The notes beneath the pieces are model-generated. The model did not search any database. It worked only from the letters and a program-made list of their open reading frames with translations, and was not told where the DNA came from. A DNA stretch of 64,000 bases from a virus (taxonomy: Duplodnaviria; Heunggongvirae; Uroviricota; Caudoviricetes). Positions 5,729-28,734 of this stretch are shown piece by piece. A program made the position numbers and the translations under genes. Location: the IMG/VR virus record IMGVR_UViG_2675903278_000002; one strand, written 5' to 3'. Each line of letters starts with the position of its first letter. The first letter of the stretch is position 1.

Positions 5729-6142
5729 ATGGCAAGAGGTATGTATGTCTTATGCGAAATTGAAGGTGTGCTGGCAAATGCCAGCCATCGTAAATCAGTA
5801 TCTGACGCGGATGCAGGCCAGCTCATTGCCGGTGATGAACTCATTTTCCCCACCAGCCGTATGTTGCGTGGTTTTGCTCGCTCAGGGGCTGAAGTGGTGC
5901 TTATCAGTAGCCGCTCTGAAACTCTTGAAGCGCCAACTAAACGATGGCTGAAAGATTTTGGCGTTGATTATGACTGGCTTCATCTCGTACCGAATGGCAC
6001 CAGTTATGAGAAGCATATTAAGCGCACATTAGCGGAGCATAAAGGCGATCTGCTTATCGCTGCGCTGGTGCACGATCCTCGACTCCGTGCCGCTTTAGCC
6101 GACTCTCACCATCGACCGGTCATCTATGAGGTGAGCAAATGA
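5729..6142 (+). CDS. Hypothetical protein (possibly HAD-like fold, non-canonical motif I)
   Basis: ATG lies 2 nt after the thyA stop, and the stop overlaps the folA start (ATGA). MYVLCEIEGVLAN sits where HAD motif I would be but lacks DxD. Confidence 0.45.
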   Translation: MARGMYVLCEIEGVLANASHRKSVSDADAGQLIAGDELIFPTSRMLRGFARSGAEVVLISSRSETLEAPTKRWLKDFGVDYDWLHLVPNGTSYEKHIKRTLAEHKGDLLIAALVHDPRLRAALADSHHRPVIYEVSK

Positions 6143-6615
6143 AGATGATCGCTGCTGTTGGCCGTAACTATGAGATCGGCATAGCGAATGAACTCCCCTG
6201 GCGTTGTTCTACCGATCTGAAGCTATTTAAGAGACTCACCAAAAACGCCACTGTCGTTATGGGGCGTAAAACGATGGAAAGTCTCAAACGCCCTCTTCCA
6301 GAGCGTCATAACCTCGTTTTGACGCGCTCTCATGGCTTTGTACCAAATGGATTCTACCCTGCTGGTGTGGATGATGTGTTGCGATTACCAGAGCCTGTGT
6401 GGGTGATTGGCGGGGAACAAATTTACTCGCTATTCATGCCGCATGTTGAAGAGATTTGGCTCTCCCACATCGGCGTTGATGTGCCAAACGCCGATGCATT
6501 CTTCCCGGCAAGCATGATGCGTAATTTAGGCTTTGTGCCTGTTGAAACAGCTTATACCCAACGAGCCAGCGAGGAAGAGCCTGGCTTTTCGCAGATCGTA
6601 TACAGAAGGTCGTAA
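6139..6615 (+). CDS. folA: Dihydrofolate reductase
   Basis: 158 aa. Motifs IAAVGRNYEIG..LPW, VVMGRKT.ES...PLP.R.N.VLT and VIGG..IY are collinear with E. coli FolA. Confidence 0.9.
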   Translation: MKMIAAVGRNYEIGIANELPWRCSTDLKLFKRLTKNATVVMGRKTMESLKRPLPERHNLVLTRSHGFVPNGFYPAGVDDVLRLPEPVWVIGGEQIYSLFMPHVEEIWLSHIGVDVPNADAFFPASMMRNLGFVPVETAYTQRASEEEPGFSQIVYRRS

Positions 6616-20148: not shown

Positions 20149-20400
20149 ATGAGCGACTGGAATATTGCAGCTAAAAGTCAGGAAGAACGGGATAAGGTTA
20201 ACGTTGATCTGGCTGCCAGCGGTGTGGCGTACAAAGAGCGATTGAACATACCTGTCATAGCTGAACAGGTAGCCCGCGAGCAACCAGAGAACCTGCGCAC
20301 CTATTTCATGGAACGGTTACGGCACTACCGGCAGTTAAGCCTCCAGTTGCCAAAAGGAAGCCATCCGGTGTATCAGAACGAGGATGCACCAAGAAAATAA
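20149..20400 (+). CDS. Hypothetical protein
   Basis: 83-aa ORF starting 2 nt after the upstream stop. Confidence 0.5.
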
Positions 20401-20407
20401 CGGCAAG

Positions 20408-20776
20408 ATGGGGAAGACATTAAACATGCTTAACTATCACGACAACACGCGTTCTATGCAGACAATCCGCACCAATACAGCGGTGGTCGATAGCTTTCCT
20501 GTACATACTCAAGGCCGTGAAGATACCGTGGAAGTGCGACGCATGTTGTGTCGCCGGTCACCAGGCCACCAGCACTTCATCGTAACGTTTAAAAGCGATG
20601 TAGAGCGCGCCGAGAAAATCTCTAACTCCACATCTCTGGTTAGTCCGTTGGCGGAGGTTATTGTGCGCAACAATAAGGCGCGCTTTGTCCTTGAGGAGCA
20701 TCATTCTGATTTTAATGAAAAAATTGAGTCAAGCATTTTGCAATATATGAATGGCAAGTTCACGCCACCAATGTGA
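20408..20776 (+). CDS. Hypothetical protein
   Basis: The start is uncertain (20384, 20408 or 20426). Confidence 0.4.
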   Translation: MGKTLNMLNYHDNTRSMQTIRTNTAVVDSFPVHTQGREDTVEVRRMLCRRSPGHQHFIVTFKSDVERAEKISNSTSLVSPLAEVIVRNNKARFVLEEHHSDFNEKIESSILQYMNGKFTPPM

Positions 20777-20837
20777 TTAGCCCCCAGCGTGGCGCGCCTG
20801 CAAACCCCGCTTTCACAAACTATGCCTTTTCAATGTA

Positions 20838-20857
20838 TACTGTATGAATAAACAGTA
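20838..20857. promoter_or_regulatory. LexA (SOS) box
   Basis: TACTGTATGAATAAACAGTA matches CTGT-N8-ACAG and overlaps a TATACT -10-like hexamer. Confidence 0.85.
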
Positions 20858-20875
20858 TCATTGAGGTAAAACGCT

Positions 20876-21265
20876 ATGGGCTTCCCTTCTCCTGCGGCGG
20901 ATTATGCAGAGAGCCGTATTTCTCTTGATCAGCAACTAATCAGACATCCTTCAGCGACCTACTTCATGCGGGCAGCTGATAGTCATCATCGTGAGGGAAT
21001 ATTACAGGGTGCATTGCTGGTGGTCGATTCCTCACTTACCCCGGTTGATGGTTCTCTGCTTGTATGCGCTCTGGATGGGGAATATCGCGTAAAAAGATAC
21101 CGGAAGTACCCACGTCAGCATCTGGAGGATTTAAGAACCGGTAAGAAGGAAGCATTGCCAAAGGATGACGATGGATGCACGGGCAGCAATGCCGTGTTTG
21201 GTGTGATCACTCACATTATCAACGACGCAAGAAGTGGCGAGTTTGATGATTGTCCCGTGATGTAG
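20876..21265 (+). CDS. umuD: UmuD'-like protein (pre-truncated UmuD homologue, P1 HumD-like)
   Basis: Begins MGFPSPAADY..., which matches E. coli UmuD from its Cys24/Gly25 cleavage site onward. HPSATYF is conserved, and the Ser (ADS) and Lys (VKR) positions are retained. Confidence 0.85.
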   Translation: MGFPSPAADYAESRISLDQQLIRHPSATYFMRAADSHHREGILQGALLVVDSSLTPVDGSLLVCALDGEYRVKRYRKYPRQHLEDLRTGKKEALPKDDDGCTGSNAVFGVITHIINDARSGEFDDCPVM

Positions 21266-21276
21266 GAGAACTGATT

Positions 21277-21301
21277 AGGCGGTGCATTGCACCGCCTTTT
21301 T
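21277..21301 (+). terminator. Rho-independent terminator
   Basis: GGCGGTGC-att-GCACCGCC followed by TTTTT. It ends 1 nt before the mrp stop codon. Confidence 0.8.
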
Positions 21302-21302
21302 A

Positions 21303-22403
21303 TCACACTGCGCGGAATGCGATTTCGCCAGGTATTACTTCACCTTGCCAATACATTTGGGCAGCAACGCGATCTGCGAGGTCACGATAAATAGCCGTAA
21401 ATTCGCTATCTGGACGACTAATAACGGTTGGTGTTCCGTTATCCAGATCTTCACGAAGAGAGATATGAAGTGGCATTTGGCCTAACAACTGCGTGTTGTA
21501 TTTCTCGGCCAGTTTCTGTGCGCCACCGGTGCCAAAAATTGGCTCGTGATGACCGCAGTTACTGCAAATATGCACACTCATGTTTTCGACGATACCCAGT
21601 ACCGGCACTTCGACTTTTTCGAACATCACAATGCCTTTCTTCGCATCGATCAGCGCGATGTCTTGCGGCGTAGTTACCACAACCGCACCAGTTACAGGAA
21701 TGTTCTGCGCCAGCGTCAACTGAATATCACCAGTGCCCGGCGGCATATCGAGAACGAGATAGTCCAGATCAGGCCATAGAGTTTCCTGCAACATCTGCAT
21801 CAGCGCCTTGCTGGCCATCGGTCCACGCCACACCATTGCATTGTCGTCGGTGACCAGATAACCAATAGAGTTGGTTGCCAGGCCATGAGACATGATAGGT
21901 GCCATGTGAGTACCGTCCGGTGAGGTTGGACGTTGGTTTTCCGCGCCCAGCATGGTTGGAATTGATGGACCATAGATATCGGCATCCAAAATACCAACTT
22001 TCGCACCTTCAGCAGCCAACGCCAGTGCCAGATTTACCGCCGTGGAGGATTTACCTACGCCGCCCTTGCCTGAGCTGACGGCGATAATGTTCTTAACGCC
22101 ATTAATGCCTGGTTGGTTTTTGACGCGCTTAAGCGTGGCAATGTTGTACGACAGCTTCCAGTCAATAGCCTTTGCGCCAGTGATACGGAGCAGATCACCA
22201 CTACATTGCTCTTTCAGGTCTTCAAAAGGCTTATTCCACACGAAAGGCATGATTAGTTCGACATGCAGTGTGTCATCCATCAACGCAACATGGTGTAACG
22301 CTTTAAGCGTAGTCAGGTTGTGTTTCAGGGTTGGGTGCTGAAAATTAGCCAGCGTACCGGCTACCATTGCTCTCAGGGCATCCGGCGATTTGGACTCGCT
22401 CAT
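21303..22403 (-). CDS. mrp: Fe-S cluster carrier ATPase Mrp/ApbC (host-type)
   Basis: 366 aa. Nearly collinear and identical to E. coli Mrp as I recall it (AVSSGKGGVGKSS, CSNCGHHEPIFG). Confidence 0.95.
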   Translation of the reverse strand: MSESKSPDALRAMVAGTLANFQHPTLKHNLTTLKALHHVALMDDTLHVELIMPFVWNKPFEDLKEQCSGDLLRITGAKAIDWKLSYNIATLKRVKNQPGINGVKNIIAVSSGKGGVGKSSTAVNLALALAAEGAKVGILDADIYGPSIPTMLGAENQRPTSPDGTHMAPIMSHGLATNSIGYLVTDDNAMVWRGPMASKALMQMLQETLWPDLDYLVLDMPPGTGDIQLTLAQNIPVTGAVVVTTPQDIALIDAKKGIVMFEKVEVPVLGIVENMSVHICSNCGHHEPIFGTGGAQKLAEKYNTQLLGQMPLHISLREDLDNGTPTVISRPDSEFTAIYRDLADRVAAQMYWQGEVIPGEIAFRAV

Positions 22404-22560
22404 CCCGTCTCCTTTATTTTAATTTGCGCAATTGTCGCCTTGTAGTGTACTCCAGCTACGACATTTAATCATTTATGAGAAATGCTGTTATCACATGGCA
22501 GACATAAGGCCATTTTGTTACTATCAAGCCCCTTTTCACTACAAAGAAGTAATGCCTACT

Positions 22561-24594
22561 ATGACCCAAGTCGCGAAGAAAATTCTGGTGACGTGCGCGC
22601 TGCCGTACGCTAACGGCTCAATCCACCTCGGCCATATGCTGGAGCACATCCAGGCTGATGTCTGGGTTCGTTACCAGCGAATGCGCGGCCACGAGGTTAA
22701 TTTCATCTGTGCCGACGATGCCCACGGTACGCCGATCATGCTGAAAGCACAGCAGCTTGGTATCACACCGGAGCAGATGATTGGCGAAATGAGTCAGGAA
22801 CACCAGACTGATTTCGCAGGCTTTAACATCAGCTATGACAACTATCACTCGACGCACAGCGAAGAGAACCGTCAGTTGTCTGAGCTTATCTATACTCGCC
22901 TGAAAGAGAACGGTTTTATTAAAAACCGCACTATCTCTCAGTTGTACGACCCGGAAAAAGGCATGTTCCTGCCGGATCGTTTTGTAAAAGGCACCTGCCC
23001 GAAATGTAAAGCGCCAGATCAATACGGCGATAACTGTGAAGTCTGCGGCGCAACATATAGCCCGACTGAATTGATCGAGCCGAAATCGGTGGTTTCTGGC
23101 GCTACCCCGGTAATGCGTGATTCCGAACACTTCTTCTTTGATCTGCCTTCTTTCAGCGAAATGTTGCAGGCATGGACCCGCAGCGGCGCGTTGCAGGAGC
23201 AGGTGGCGAACAAAATGCAGGAATGGTTTGAATCCGGCCTGCAACAGTGGGATATCTCCCGAGATGCGCCTTACTTCGGTTTTGAAATTCCGAACGCGCC
23301 GGGCAAATATTTCTACGTCTGGCTGGACGCGCCGATTGGCTACATGGGTTCCTTCAAGAATCTGTGCGACAAGCGCGGCGATACCACCAGCTTCGATGAA
23401 TACTGGAAGAAAGACTCCACCGCCGAGCTGTACCACTTCATCGGTAAAGATATTGTTTACTTCCACAGCCTGTTCTGGCCTGCCATGCTGGAAGGCAGCA
23501 ACTTCCGCAAGCCGACCAACCTGTTTGTTCACGGCTATGTGACGGTGAACGGCGCGAAGATGTCCAAGTCTCGCGGCACCTTTATTAAAGCCAGCACCTG
23601 GCTGAATCATTTTGACGCCGACAGCCTGCGTTACTACTACACTGCGAAACTCTCTTCGCGCATTGATGATATCGATCTCAACCTGGAGGATTTCGTTCAG
23701 CGCGTGAATGCCGATATCGTGAACAAAGTGGTTAACCTGGCCTCCCGTAATGCAGGCTTTATCAACAAGCGTTTTGACGGCGTGCTGGCAAGCGAACTGG
23801 CTGACCCGCAACTGTACAAAACCTTTACTGATGCCGCTGAAGTGATTGGCGAAGCATGGGAAAGCCGCGAATTTGGTAAAGCTATCCGTGAAATCATGGC
23901 ATTGGCTGACCTGGCTAACCGCTATGTCGATGAACAGGCTCCGTGGGTGGTGGCGAAGCAGGAAGGACGCGATGCCGATCTGCAGGCGATTTGCTCTATG
24001 GGCATTAACCTGTTCCGCGTGCTGATGACGTACCTGAAGCCGGTACTGCCGAAACTGACTGAACGTGCAGAAGCATTCCTGAATACAGAACTGACCTGGG
24101 ATGGTATCCAGCAACCGCTGCTGGGCCATAAAGTAAATCCGTTCAAGGCACTGTATAACCGCATCGATATGAAGCAGGTTGAAGCACTGGTGGAAGCATC
24201 CAAAGAAGAAGTGAAAGCCACAGCCGCACCGGTAACTGGCCCACTGGCTGACGACCCGATTCAGGAAACTATCACCTTTGACGACTTCGCCAAAGTTGAC
24301 CTGCGCGTGGCGCTGATTGAAAACGCAGAGTTTGTAGAAGGTTCTGACAAACTGCTTCGCCTGACGCTGGATCTCGGTGGTGAAAAGCGTAATGTCTTCT
24401 CAGGCATCCGTTCCGCTTATCCAGATCCACAGGCACTGATTGGTCGTCACACCATTATGGTGGCTAACCTGGCACCACGTAAAATGCGCTTCGGTATCTC
24501 TGAAGGCATGGTGATGGCTGCTGGCCCCGGCGGGAAAGATATCTTCCTGTTAAGCCCGGATGCTGGTGCTAAACCTGGCCACCAGGTTAAGTAA
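22561..24594 (+). CDS. metG: Methionyl-tRNA synthetase (host-type, full length)
   Basis: 677 aa from ATG 22561 ([25 protein letters not shown]..., KMSKS). Only scattered substitutions relative to E. coli K-12 MetG as I recall it. The track ORF start at 22432 is upstream read-in. Confidence 0.97.
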
Positions 24595-24613
24595 TTAAAC
24601 AACCTCTCTTCGC

Positions 24614-25999: not shown

Positions 26000-26099
26000 C
26001 GGTTGCAACTTATTGATAATGGCGGTCACAATTTGATTCTTTTCTATAAGAACCCGTTGATCGCCACTACTCCCCTCCCATACCAGCAATCACATCATT

Positions 26100-26870
26100 A
26101 AATATCAATAGGTTATGGTTGTTTATACAAATAAGAAAACAACTAAATAACAGATCAACGAAACGTCAACGCTTTCACCCGATTTGGTCTAAAAAATTGA
26201 CGTTTTCACACATCACTTCTTATACCCGTAACTCTACGCAGCAGACATCGCCACAGCGTCCAATTTTCACCACAGACGACCCAACACACTACCAACAAAA
26301 ACACACGCTCAAAATCGCTCCCGTTGCGTTACACAACCATATAAACAACTTATTTTCAGGCATAACAAAACAACTAAATAACACACATGCCATTTCCAAA
26401 AACAACCAACCTCTTTATGGCAGGCTACCGAAAAGACCCACCTCTTCTCCCCAGGCTACCGGACAACCAACCTAACTTTCACAGGCAATCCGAAAACATT
26501 CATACGCGCGATACCCACGACACGCCATTACCCAAACAGCGAAGAAACACCAGAATCACTGAACCCCCAACGAAGCCTGTAACCGCAAGGCTTCTCTCAA
26601 TCCCAAAAGACACGAAACAGAACAATCACGGGAAACGCCATTACCCAACACACGAATAACTACAAAAGCCCTTCACGCACTCCAGACAAACAACTCAAAC
26701 ACAATAACGAAAGGAATCGCCCACCTGCCATTACTCCATACACGGAGAAGAACAATCACCAAAACGACGAGAACACCCCATAGAAGAACCACCGCAAAAC
26801 GAACGAAACCACATACACCGACAGAGAGAACAACACACCCAATTCACCAACAGAATTAGTCGCCGTATAG
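26100..26870 (+). other. A+C-skewed, G/T-poor non-coding tract
   Basis: By hand count, about 100 G in 780 nt, and 70-80% A+C in the lines I counted. Track ORFs here translate to low-complexity T/P/Q/N/H sequence. Confidence 0.6.
26421..26510 (+). repeat. Three tandem ~30-bp repeats (CAGGCTACCGnAnAAnCCnACCT...)
   Basis: Units start at 26421, 26452 and 26482. A related triplet lies at 30416-30500. Confidence 0.6.
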
Positions 26871-26981
26871 AACGTTCTGGAAGGAGTGAGTGTTAACGTC
26901 CATAGAGAGGTTGAGACAGATAAAACACGAATAAAACACAACATGTATAGCGAAGAAGCCAGGTATGTATAAGTGGGGAGA

Positions 26982-27007
26982 GAAGGAGGGGTGTCGCCTC
27001 CTTTTTC
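26982..27007 (+). terminator. Rho-independent terminator closing the A+C-rich tract
   Basis: AAGGAGG-ggtgtcg-CCTCCTT followed by TTT. Confidence 0.6.
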
Positions 27008-27069
27008 GTATTTATTCAACTCCTGATTTTACCCCCCGTAACACCCCTACGGTCAGCCTTCGGTCCATA

Positions 27070-27205
27070 CAGGGAAAAGGCTGCATCCCGCTACAGAAAC
27101 GGCTGGGTTGCCTTCGGGGAACGGCTGGAGGTTTTCAGGGAAACGGTCGAGTTGCCTGTGTGGATTTCGGGAAAAGGCTCGATGCCGGTTCAGGAACGGT
27201 GGCGT
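27070..27205 (+). repeat. Iteron-like array: six direct repeats (G/C)GGAAA(A/C)GGCT
   Basis: The GG anchor of each repeat falls at 27079, 27101, 27123, 27145, 27176 and 27198, giving spacings of 22, 22, 22, 31 and 22 bp. Confidence 0.7.
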
Positions 27206-27342
27206 ACCGGTATAGCGTGAGGGAGAGTTGCGGCTGTCCACCTGTAATGTGCGGGAAGAAGAGAGGCGCTCACGTGCAGGCGAACTTACTTACCGCTGGA
27301 TTCCCTCTGAATGCCCAGCTACAGCGTAATTGTGCCAGACAG

Positions 27343-27489
27343 TCAGCGGGTCACAATCGATTTCAGTAGGTTTTCGGGGAGAAGAAAATTCTGCCCACCA
27401 GCCCTGCGGCGCGCGTAGAGCAGAATATCGTAAATACTGGTTCCGTGTCGTTCCCGGATACTCACTACCCAGCCTGGCTTTCCCGACAT
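27343..27489 (-). CDS. Possible 48-aa basic protein
   Basis: Internal ATG has AAAGGA 4 nt upstream and gives MSGKPGWVVSIRERHGTSIYDILLYARRRAGGQ... It is divergent from the 27583 gene. The track start at 27546 lies inside Box A. Confidence 0.3.
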   Translation of the reverse strand: MSGKPGWVVSIRERHGTSIYDILLYARRRAGGQNFLLPENLLKSIVTR

Positions 27490-27536
27490 AAAATCCTTTT
27501 CCGCCTTTGTCTTATTGCGATAATAACACCAACAAG

Positions 27537-27551
27537 TAAACAACATGTTTA
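27537..27551. promoter_or_regulatory. Box A palindrome copy
   Basis: TAAACAACATGTTTA, preceded by GATAATAACACCAACAAG (a shared -10-like context). Confidence 0.6.
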
Positions 27552-27582
27552 GACGTTATATAAACGAAGTGAGGATGAAGAG

Positions 27583-27801
27583 ATGATTAAGATGCCTGTG
27601 ACGGTTGAGGTGTGGGGCGTGGATTCCCTGGCTGAGTGTCTGGATGCAGTGGGGCCGGAGTTGTACCGCAAGTTGTGGTCGTTCGTCCCGGCAGAAGGGG
27701 AATCGCCCAAAGGGAAGGATATCTGGCACCTGCTGAGTGAAGATGAAAAGCGGGAGCTGGTGGACGCGGTACACAGCGAGTTCCCGGGCGACGAAGATTA
27801 A
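27583..27801 (+). CDS. Small acidic hypothetical protein (cassette 1)
   Basis: 72 aa. GAGGA lies 7 nt upstream. Confidence 0.5.
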   Translation: MIKMPVTVEVWGVDSLAECLDAVGPELYRKLWSFVPAEGESPKGKDIWHLLSEDEKRELVDAVHSEFPGDED

Positions 27802-28422: not shown

Positions 28423-28734
28423 ATGAAAAAATCATTGGTTCTTGGTCTGGACAAAGACCAGAAGAGAAAAGAGAAGCCTGCGCTGGTTGCTCAATTAACT
28501 TTGCTGGACATCGTTGCCAATGGAACCTCTATTCGTCTGTTCCGTGAAACAGCGGTGTCTTTCGATAAAAACACCTTTACTCGTTATGTAATGAATGTTC
28601 GTCGCCAGCGTGGAAAAGGCTGGGTGGCATTTCAAAGAATGTGGCCGGAACATCAGCTCGAACTGGCTTTGATGGAAGTTAACCGCGTGGCCCAGCAAGA
28701 GATTCAGAGAGCATCAGTGATGGCAATAGCCTGA
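28423..28734 (+). CDS. Small basic hypothetical protein (cassette 3)
   Basis: ATG 28423 has GGAG 5 nt upstream. 103 aa. Confidence 0.5.
   Translation: MKKSLVLGLDKDQKRKEKPALVAQLTLLDIVANGTSIRLFRETAVSFDKNTFTRYVMNVRRQRGKGWVAFQRMWPEHQLELALMEVNRVAQQEIQRASVMAIA

Follow-up and report, generated by a model that had tools for sequence, protein, structure and literature searches.

How would a mobile element that carries a UmuD-like gene and no umuC contribute to the SOS response of its host? The question is raised by positions 20838 to 21265 of a 64,000-nucleotide stretch of viral DNA (here termed the window) from the Caudoviricetes record IMGVR_UViG_2675903278_000002, which a preliminary description had presented as an SOS-controlled, already truncated UmuD' homologue lacking a umuC partner. 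Judging by its similarity to Cyrano, the carrier is probably an SSU5-like Escherichia coli phage-plasmid of ~110 kb, close to Cyrano/pLF82, and five large blocks of the window align to plasmid p2 of E. coli E03 (NZ_JBUZKL010000003.1, 109,854 bp) at ~98-99.5% identity. Our analysis indicates that the locus is probably a monocistronic, LexA-repressed humD gene, the product of which pairs with the host UmuC as a ready-made UmuD'. As far as the sequence itself goes, the element holds a pre-truncated UmuD' homologue, an SOS box at the promoter predicted for it and no polymerase partner. The humD unit is a compact single gene with a predicted promoter, an operator, a Shine-Dalgarno sequence, the coding sequence and a terminator, as follows:

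20812 to 20841, plus strand: predicted sigma-70 promoter of humD, with TTCACA at 20812, an 18-nucleotide spacer and TATACT at 20836 to 20841 (10 of 12 consensus matches)
20838 to 20857, no strand assigned: LexA operator (SOS box) TACTGTATGAATAAACAGTA, predicted from sequence
20864 to 20868, plus strand: Shine-Dalgarno GAGGT, read from sequence, 8 nucleotides before the humD ATG and conserved in P1
20876 to 21265, plus strand: humD, encoding a 129-amino-acid HumD-family protein, a pre-truncated UmuD' homologue
21277 to 21302, plus strand: intrinsic terminator of humD, with a 9-bp GC-rich stem, a 3-nucleotide loop and a T run

Identity of the humD product

The translated open reading frame (ORF) begins MGFPSPAADY, and direct alignment places its Gly2 on Gly25 of E. 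coli UmuD. Searches against solved structures give the same register, since residues 2-116 of the query match residues 25-136 of full-length UmuD (8gmt_B), while in UmuD' (1umu; E 3.5e-23) Gly2 falls on residue 1. Upstream of the ATG, the frame reads ...FTPPM, a stop, LAPSVARLQTPLSQTMPFQCILYE, a stop, TVSLR, a stop and NA before MGFPS. Stops thus lie 3 and 9 codons before the start, and the preceding ORF contributes its own; no in-frame extension can therefore bring back the N-terminal arm. Alignment and leader agree that both the arm and the Cys24-Gly25 cleavage site are missing from the product. The preliminary description, which had placed the start at the equivalent of Gly25 and had seen a stop-containing leader with no in-frame start ahead of it, was right on both counts.

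Assignment to a family is equally direct. The curated NCBIfam equivalog model NF051876 ('HumD family translesion DNA polymerase') scores the product at 219.7 bits, against a cut-off of 120, and aligns residues 1-129 to the whole of its 129 positions, whereas the UmuD subfamily model NF007621 yields 87.9 bits, below its cut-off of 110. In direct alignments, which had been suggested as a check, the product shows 92% identity with P1 HumD and 45% with E. coli UmuD, and the proposed likeness to the already activated UmuD' form, as in P1 HumD, is thereby borne out. The only Pfam match is Peptidase_S24 (PF00717), and the positions of the Ser/Lys dyad are present, with S36 on S60 and K73 on K97 of UmuD. 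Unlike UmuD', the product carries an insertion of 4 residues near residue 100 and, beyond the last shared residue, R119 (R139 in UmuD), a tail of 10 residues. The ratio of nonsynonymous to synonymous substitution rates (dN/dS, Nei-Gojobori) against P1, D6 and RCS47 is 0.05-0.07 at dS 0.62-0.73, and humD is therefore under strong purifying selection.

Set against E. coli UmuD and UmuD' (PDB 1UMU, 1I4V and 8GMT), the window protein belongs to the same S24 C-terminal fold family and shares the dyad and the region from Gly25 onward, but UmuD possesses a 24-residue arm, the Cys24-Gly25 site and an operon with umuC, none of which is found with the window gene. The HumD family is matched in score, in the Gly25-equivalent start, in orphan status, in operator sequence and in the C-terminal extension GEFDDCPV[MI]; of what characterizes a canonical UmuD, the Ser-Lys dyad is present, the score is below the cut-off, and the arm, the cleavage site and the umuC operon are absent. 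The identical locus in RefSeq (100% over the 621 bases compared) already names the product as a 'HumD family translesion DNA polymerase' (WP_053272004.1). Hence, the gene is an ordinary, already catalogued and correctly named copy of humD and nothing new as an identification; with HumD characterized in P1 in 1999, a curated model available and the RefSeq label in place, it adds little as a finding.

The humD locus of the window was compared with those of P1, of the P1-like D6 and RCS47, of the SSU5-like Cyrano and of the linear phage-plasmids N15 and phiKO2. Across these six elements and the window, HumD has 127-129 amino acids, starts with [MV]-GFPSPA and ends in ...GEFDD[CS]P[VA][MIL]. P1 HumD (humD, P1_gp103) shares with the window copy its length of 129 amino acids, the M-GFPSPAADY start, the same tail, the absence of umuC and the presence of hot upstream. 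The HumD proteins of N15 (gp26), phiKO2 (gp23) and Citrobacter and Salmonella prophages likewise display the short start, a tail ...GEFDDCPV[LM], a LexA box and no umuC, but they are only ~70% identical and lie next to a divergent dinI or adjoining partition genes rather than downstream of hot. A large protein collection contains 572 homologues at E <= 1e-10; G[FY]PSP is located at offset 1 in 106 of the best 120 of these, and most are 126-130 amino acids long. The few longer calls are probably start-calling artefacts, since they extend the frame across the operator as far as an earlier ATG and keep the M-GFPSP junction. A humD-like sequence is harbored by 720 (~13%) of the 5426 complete E. 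coli genomes, at 650 plasmid and 113 chromosomal places. The carriers of humD are mostly phage-plasmids that also spread resistance genes, and the window element itself carries dfrA51.

Proposed LexA control and reliance on the host UmuC

The operator TACTGTATGAATAAACAGTA departs from the textbook sequence TACTGTATATATATACAGTA at three positions, each within its AT-rich centre. With up to 3 mismatches allowed, the 64-kb window contains no other match, and a match occurs in none of 100 shuffles that preserve dinucleotides. The predicted -10 hexamer (20836-20841) overlaps its left arm, in agreement with the earlier proposal of a LexA box over the -10 of the gene; the promoter call derives from a consensus scan and is a prediction, the count of such sites in the region being no higher than in shuffles. 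The operator starts 38 nucleotides upstream of the humD ATG, the corresponding distance for E. coli umuDC being 39 nucleotides. The same operator, letter for letter, is found in D6 and RCS47, and in alignment it coincides with the LexA site that the P1 record annotates, a homologous operator and leader standing there 38-39 nucleotides before the humD ATG. Upstream LexA boxes with 2-4 mismatches occur in all the humD loci compared, at 34-39 nucleotides from the start except in phiKO2. Cyrano differs in carrying another variant of the box, TACTGTATGTGTATACAGTA. The P1 and phiKO2 records annotate their humD-upstream sites as LexA-binding, and humD has been referred to as a LexA-regulated SOS gene (PMC9603915). 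At the other end of the unit, the terminator hairpin (21277-21297) has a folding energy of -22.8 kcal/mol (z = -5.3), a value that none of 200 shuffles equals.

By itself, the CTGT-N8-ACAG core does not reach significance in the window, with 2 occurrences found against 0.59 expected and 14 of 100 shuffles reaching 2. The second occurrence, CTGTTCCGTGAAACAG at 28537-28552, has a GC-rich centre and no TA flanks and is probably due to chance. Separately, a LexA-box-like site with 4 mismatches, TACTGTTTACTTATACAGTG, lies outside the window at ~84888-84907 of NZ_JBUZKL010000003.1 (L004:41889-41908). It sits 27 nucleotides upstream of a tyrosine recombinase gene, the 3' end of which overlaps a convergent helix-turn-helix regulator gene, and it may link SOS to the maintenance or lysogeny control of the element.

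No counterpart of UmuC could be located. When E. coli UmuC (from NC_000913.3) was used as a tblastn query against the window and four loci that span the whole ~110-kb plasmid record, the best match had an E-value of 0.73, and the annotation of the matching plasmid by the Prokaryotic Genome Annotation Pipeline (PGAP) contains no Y-family polymerase. The equivalent search with UmuD, over window and whole plasmid, matched the humD ORF alone, and only from UmuD residue 25 on. The claim that the window lacks a umuC-like gene thus stands and applies to the entire plasmid. In a similar vein, no IMS/UmuC-family gene was found within 6 kb of the Citrobacter and Salmonella prophage copies of humD. Since the element supplies no such polymerase subunit, it depends on the host umuC.

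These observations are consistent with the following sequence of events. In the undamaged cell, host LexA would sit on the operator overlapping the -10 and keep humD off; upon DNA damage, self-cleavage of LexA would derepress the gene. HumD would then emerge from translation already in the state that chromosomal UmuD attains only after the slow, RecA*-stimulated removal of 24 residues, and a HumD dimer, together with host UmuC and RecA-ATP, would constitute a hybrid translesion polymerase of the Pol V type, as postulated from P1 HumD. With the UmuD-cleavage checkpoint skipped, copying of the host chromosome and of the damaged plasmid or phage genome could take place earlier in the SOS response. 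UmuD'2C still requires RecA-ATP from the RecA filament for activation of Pol V. On these general grounds, HumD bypasses only the step of UmuD cleavage and RecA is still required, so that the independence from RecA-mediated cleavage previously put forward holds for the cleavage, with arm and cleavage site both absent, and does not extend to RecA itself. An SOS-induced, cleavage-independent cofactor of Pol V could raise both damage tolerance and the supply of mutations under SOS-inducing antibiotics.

The P1 protein provides the precedent for this scheme. In the 1999 work it reportedly complemented UmuD', restoring mutagenesis in recA430 lexA(Def) cells, and it is also said to form dimers and to bind both RecA filaments and UmuC. 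The paper's title (McLenigan et al. 1999, J Bacteriol 181:7005) calls it a functional homologue of UmuD' and credits it with facilitating SOS mutagenesis.

Several points weigh against the pairing of HumD with the host UmuC as a plain substitute for UmuD'. LexA binding, SOS induction and partnering with UmuC are all attributed to the window copy through its homology to P1 HumD. Moreover, no terminator is predicted between the upstream plus-strand genes and humD, and read-through from outside the LexA-controlled promoter is possible. The P1 protein was reportedly poorly expressed in the 1999 study, with good complementation obtained only from a high-copy plasmid, which may mean that it adds little to mutagenesis under physiological conditions. 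Finally, a simple substitute for UmuD' explains neither the conserved C-terminal tail, which UmuD' lacks, nor the company of modulators of the replisome and RecA (hot, dinI) in which humD is found.

The C-terminal tail and other possible roles

In the window copy the tail ends in ...DARSGEFDDCPVM, with residues 120-129 encoded at 21233-21262 (tail peptide, ARSGEFDDCPVM). Residues were tallied over 121 near-full-length, short-form HumD homologues. At the equivalent of the catalytic Ser60, 62 of these have Ser, 44 have Thr and 6 have Ala, with the flanking positions of GDSM scrambled, the GDSM motif of UmuD being relaxed across the HumD family; K73 is kept in 106. The tail residues E122, F123, D124, D125, C126, P127 and V128 are each retained in 96-112 of the 121 (about 80-93% per position), and the tail is accordingly better conserved across the family than the equivalent of the catalytic serine. 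Short forms of 40-52% identity preserve variants of it (EFDDVPVM, EFDDTPF, EWDDLPVI, EFDEIPCI and EFHDNLPF), and full-length proteins of the UmuD type are devoid of it and end in ...VWGVVTHVIH. The tail resembles the acidic tip of SSB (the protein that binds single-stranded DNA), MDFDDDIPF (PMC10018359; bioRxiv 2020.03.03.975086), both having [DE]FDD at -8 to -5 from the C-terminus and a hydrophobic last residue. An AlphaFold model built on a family alignment of 40 sequences, all at least 67% identical, reached a mean predicted local distance difference test score (pLDDT) of 52 and a predicted template modelling score (pTM) of 0.41 and was uninformative on the tail.

Such a pattern would also be in keeping with HumD being mainly a modulator of the replisome, the RecA filament or the SSB hub, and not a subunit of Pol V, with its acidic tail docking on replication or repair proteins, possibly the DnaE, theta or RecA of the element. 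HumD would then be released during SOS along with its neighbour genes and would tune the replication or recombination of the phage-plasmid. We regard this role as unlikely, although it has more in its favour than the other alternatives. The tail E-F-D-D-C-P-V-[MI]-COOH is held far more tightly than the serine, its variants persist in the distant short forms and are absent from full-length UmuD types, and the likeness to the SSB tip points in the same direction. The neighbours of humD are always modulators of SOS or the replisome, hot in the window, P1, D6 and RCS47 and dinI in phiKO2 and the prophages, and the element encodes a dnaE and a recA of its own. UmuD and UmuD' are, besides, known to bind the alpha, beta and epsilon subunits of DNA polymerase III (Pol III). 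On the other hand, P1 HumD substitutes for UmuD' in mutagenesis assays, going by the title of the 1999 paper, the resemblance to SSB involves a short motif and is one of appearance alone, with its proline at -3 and not at -2, and the structural model is too poor to inform on the tail. The DnaE, RecA and theta (hot) of the element are nonetheless potential partners of a UmuD'-like protein. Rather less probable still is the specific proposal that the nearly invariant, acidic and aromatic tip [DE]-F-D-D-x-P-V-[MI]-COOH, retained while the peptidase serine has drifted, is a docking motif that plugs HumD, or HumD2-UmuC, into the SSB interactome or the replisome, possibly through the DnaE, theta or RecA of the element; if true, it would afford phage-plasmids a private route for recruiting translesion synthesis to stalled forks.

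The partner gene upstream of humD varies among hot, lxr and dinI. In Citrobacter and Salmonella chromosomes, humD copies lie at prophage ends, divergent from dinI across a LexA box, and such divergent humD-dinI pairs with a shared box are seen in these prophages and in phiKO2 (L012 5439-6390, L015 5676-6390 and L011 1180-1883). The product of dinI binds the RecA filament and inhibits UmuD cleavage. The arrangement is suggestive of a mobile module that would stop host UmuD from being processed and provide the pre-processed form at the same time. Neither an Lxr nor a DinI homologue was found when both were sought on the element studied here.

It is very doubtful that HumD acts in the opposite sense and dampens host SOS mutagenesis, by forming heterodimers with uncleaved UmuD or by titrating UmuC or RecA* into poorly active complexes, in the role of an anti-mutator or checkpoint factor protecting the element. 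UmuD' prefers UmuD as its partner in heterodimers and, once so paired, is degraded by ClpXP, while RecA recombination is inhibited by UmuD'C in excess; a regulatory module of this kind would also fit the divergent pairing of humD, in many relatives, with dinI, a modulator of RecA*. The published title, however, describes P1 HumD as facilitating, not suppressing, SOS mutagenesis. Lastly, it is extremely improbable that the ORF is a decaying umuDC remnant or a mis-called LexA-type repressor or S24 peptidase, in spite of its lone Pfam match and of such database names as 'LexA family transcriptional regulator' and 'S24 family peptidase', because the low dN/dS, the conserved length and the M-GFPSP start kept in 106 of the best 120 homologues speak against a pseudogene, the gene has its own predicted promoter, operator, Shine-Dalgarno sequence and terminator, and a repressor is rejected by the lack of a DNA-binding domain and by a score of 27.9 bits with the LexA model TIGR00498 (cut-off 110.95), of which only positions 91-166, in the C-terminal half, align. 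Hence, the use of HumD as a ready-made UmuD' by the host UmuC remains the preferred reading of the locus.

Mosaic neighbourhood and host element

The genes that flank the humD unit are the following:

20149 to 20400, plus strand: hot, a homologue of the Pol III theta subunit (PF06440, E 4.5e-34; phrog_1105), with 93% nucleotide identity to P1 hot
20384 to 20776, plus strand: 130-amino-acid ORF of phrog_2594, with no assigned function, between hot and the humD promoter
21303 to 24594, no strand assigned to the whole: captured apbC-metG block (apbC/mrp at 21303-22403, minus strand; metG at ~22561-24594, plus strand), context outside the humD unit

The position of hot upstream of humD is common to the window, P1, RCS47 and D6. 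Relative to RCS47, where hot directly adjoins the humD promoter, the window has an insertion of ~350 bp (20421-20769). At this spot P1 presents, between hot and the operator, the unrelated and divergently transcribed, LexA-regulated lxr on the opposite strand, in place of the plus-strand phrog_2594 ORF. The two elements differ also downstream of humD, where P1 harbors phd-doc and the window the captured apbC-metG, and in the nature of the carrier, a myovirus in the case of P1 and a siphovirus-type, probably SSU5-like, phage-plasmid in that of the window. The SSU5-like relatives Cyrano/pLF82, CMS-2020a and PhiR41_1, for their part, display the same order of humD, terminator, apbC and metG, but Cyrano has no hot at its humD locus.

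The coding sequence of humD is 98.7% identical to that of Cyrano and only 86-87% identical to those of P1-like phages, and the humD locus as a whole is 96.5% identical to Cyrano. The operator and leader, in turn, match the P1-like D6 and RCS47 without a difference, and homology to Cyrano starts at 20829. The combination of a D6/RCS47-type operator and leader with a Cyrano-type coding sequence therefore identifies the locus as a recombinant between P1-like and SSU5-like elements, with a junction near 20829.

The mrp-metG block was said in the preliminary description to have been captured and to lie immediately beside the gene, and so it does. Its homology to the E. coli chromosome extends from just past the humD terminator (21307) to the stop of metG, and the interval 21307-24595 shows 88% nucleotide identity to a chromosomal block present in all 5426 E. 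coli genomes, with 224 further places on plasmids. The extent of this divergence points to an old capture or to a source outside E. coli.

The window matches ~110-kb circular E. coli plasmids and the phage-deposited records CMS-2020a, Cyrano and PhiR41_1, and Cyrano (pLF82) is, according to PMC9928086, a virion-producing phage-plasmid of the SSU5-like type. In NZ_JBUZKL010000003.1, genes for siphovirus morphogenesis (terminase, portal, major capsid, tape measure and tail fibre) coexist with plasmid functions (repA and ParB-family partition genes) and with a set for DNA metabolism that comprises nrdAB, thymidylate synthase, dfrA51, RNase HI, ligase, a DnaB-like helicase, dnaE, recA and theta. 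The dnaE (Pol III alpha) and recA of the element lie outside the window (L004 47602 onward and L005 7176-8249, respectively). A ~1.6-kb stretch of the window, at ~26000-27640 (L001 25300-26939), has no gene annotated in the matching RefSeq record, and scans of the whole window for Rfam families (at the gathering threshold) and tRNAs returned nothing. The trimethoprim-resistance gene dfrA51, at ~6131-6607 of the window (L001 5432-5908), is embedded in a nucleotide-metabolism cluster with nrdAB and thyA, and recent work reports this gene from phage-plasmids (PMC12217456). The phage-plasmid also carries, in the captured block, a second methionyl-tRNA synthetase (metG) and an Fe-S carrier (apbC).

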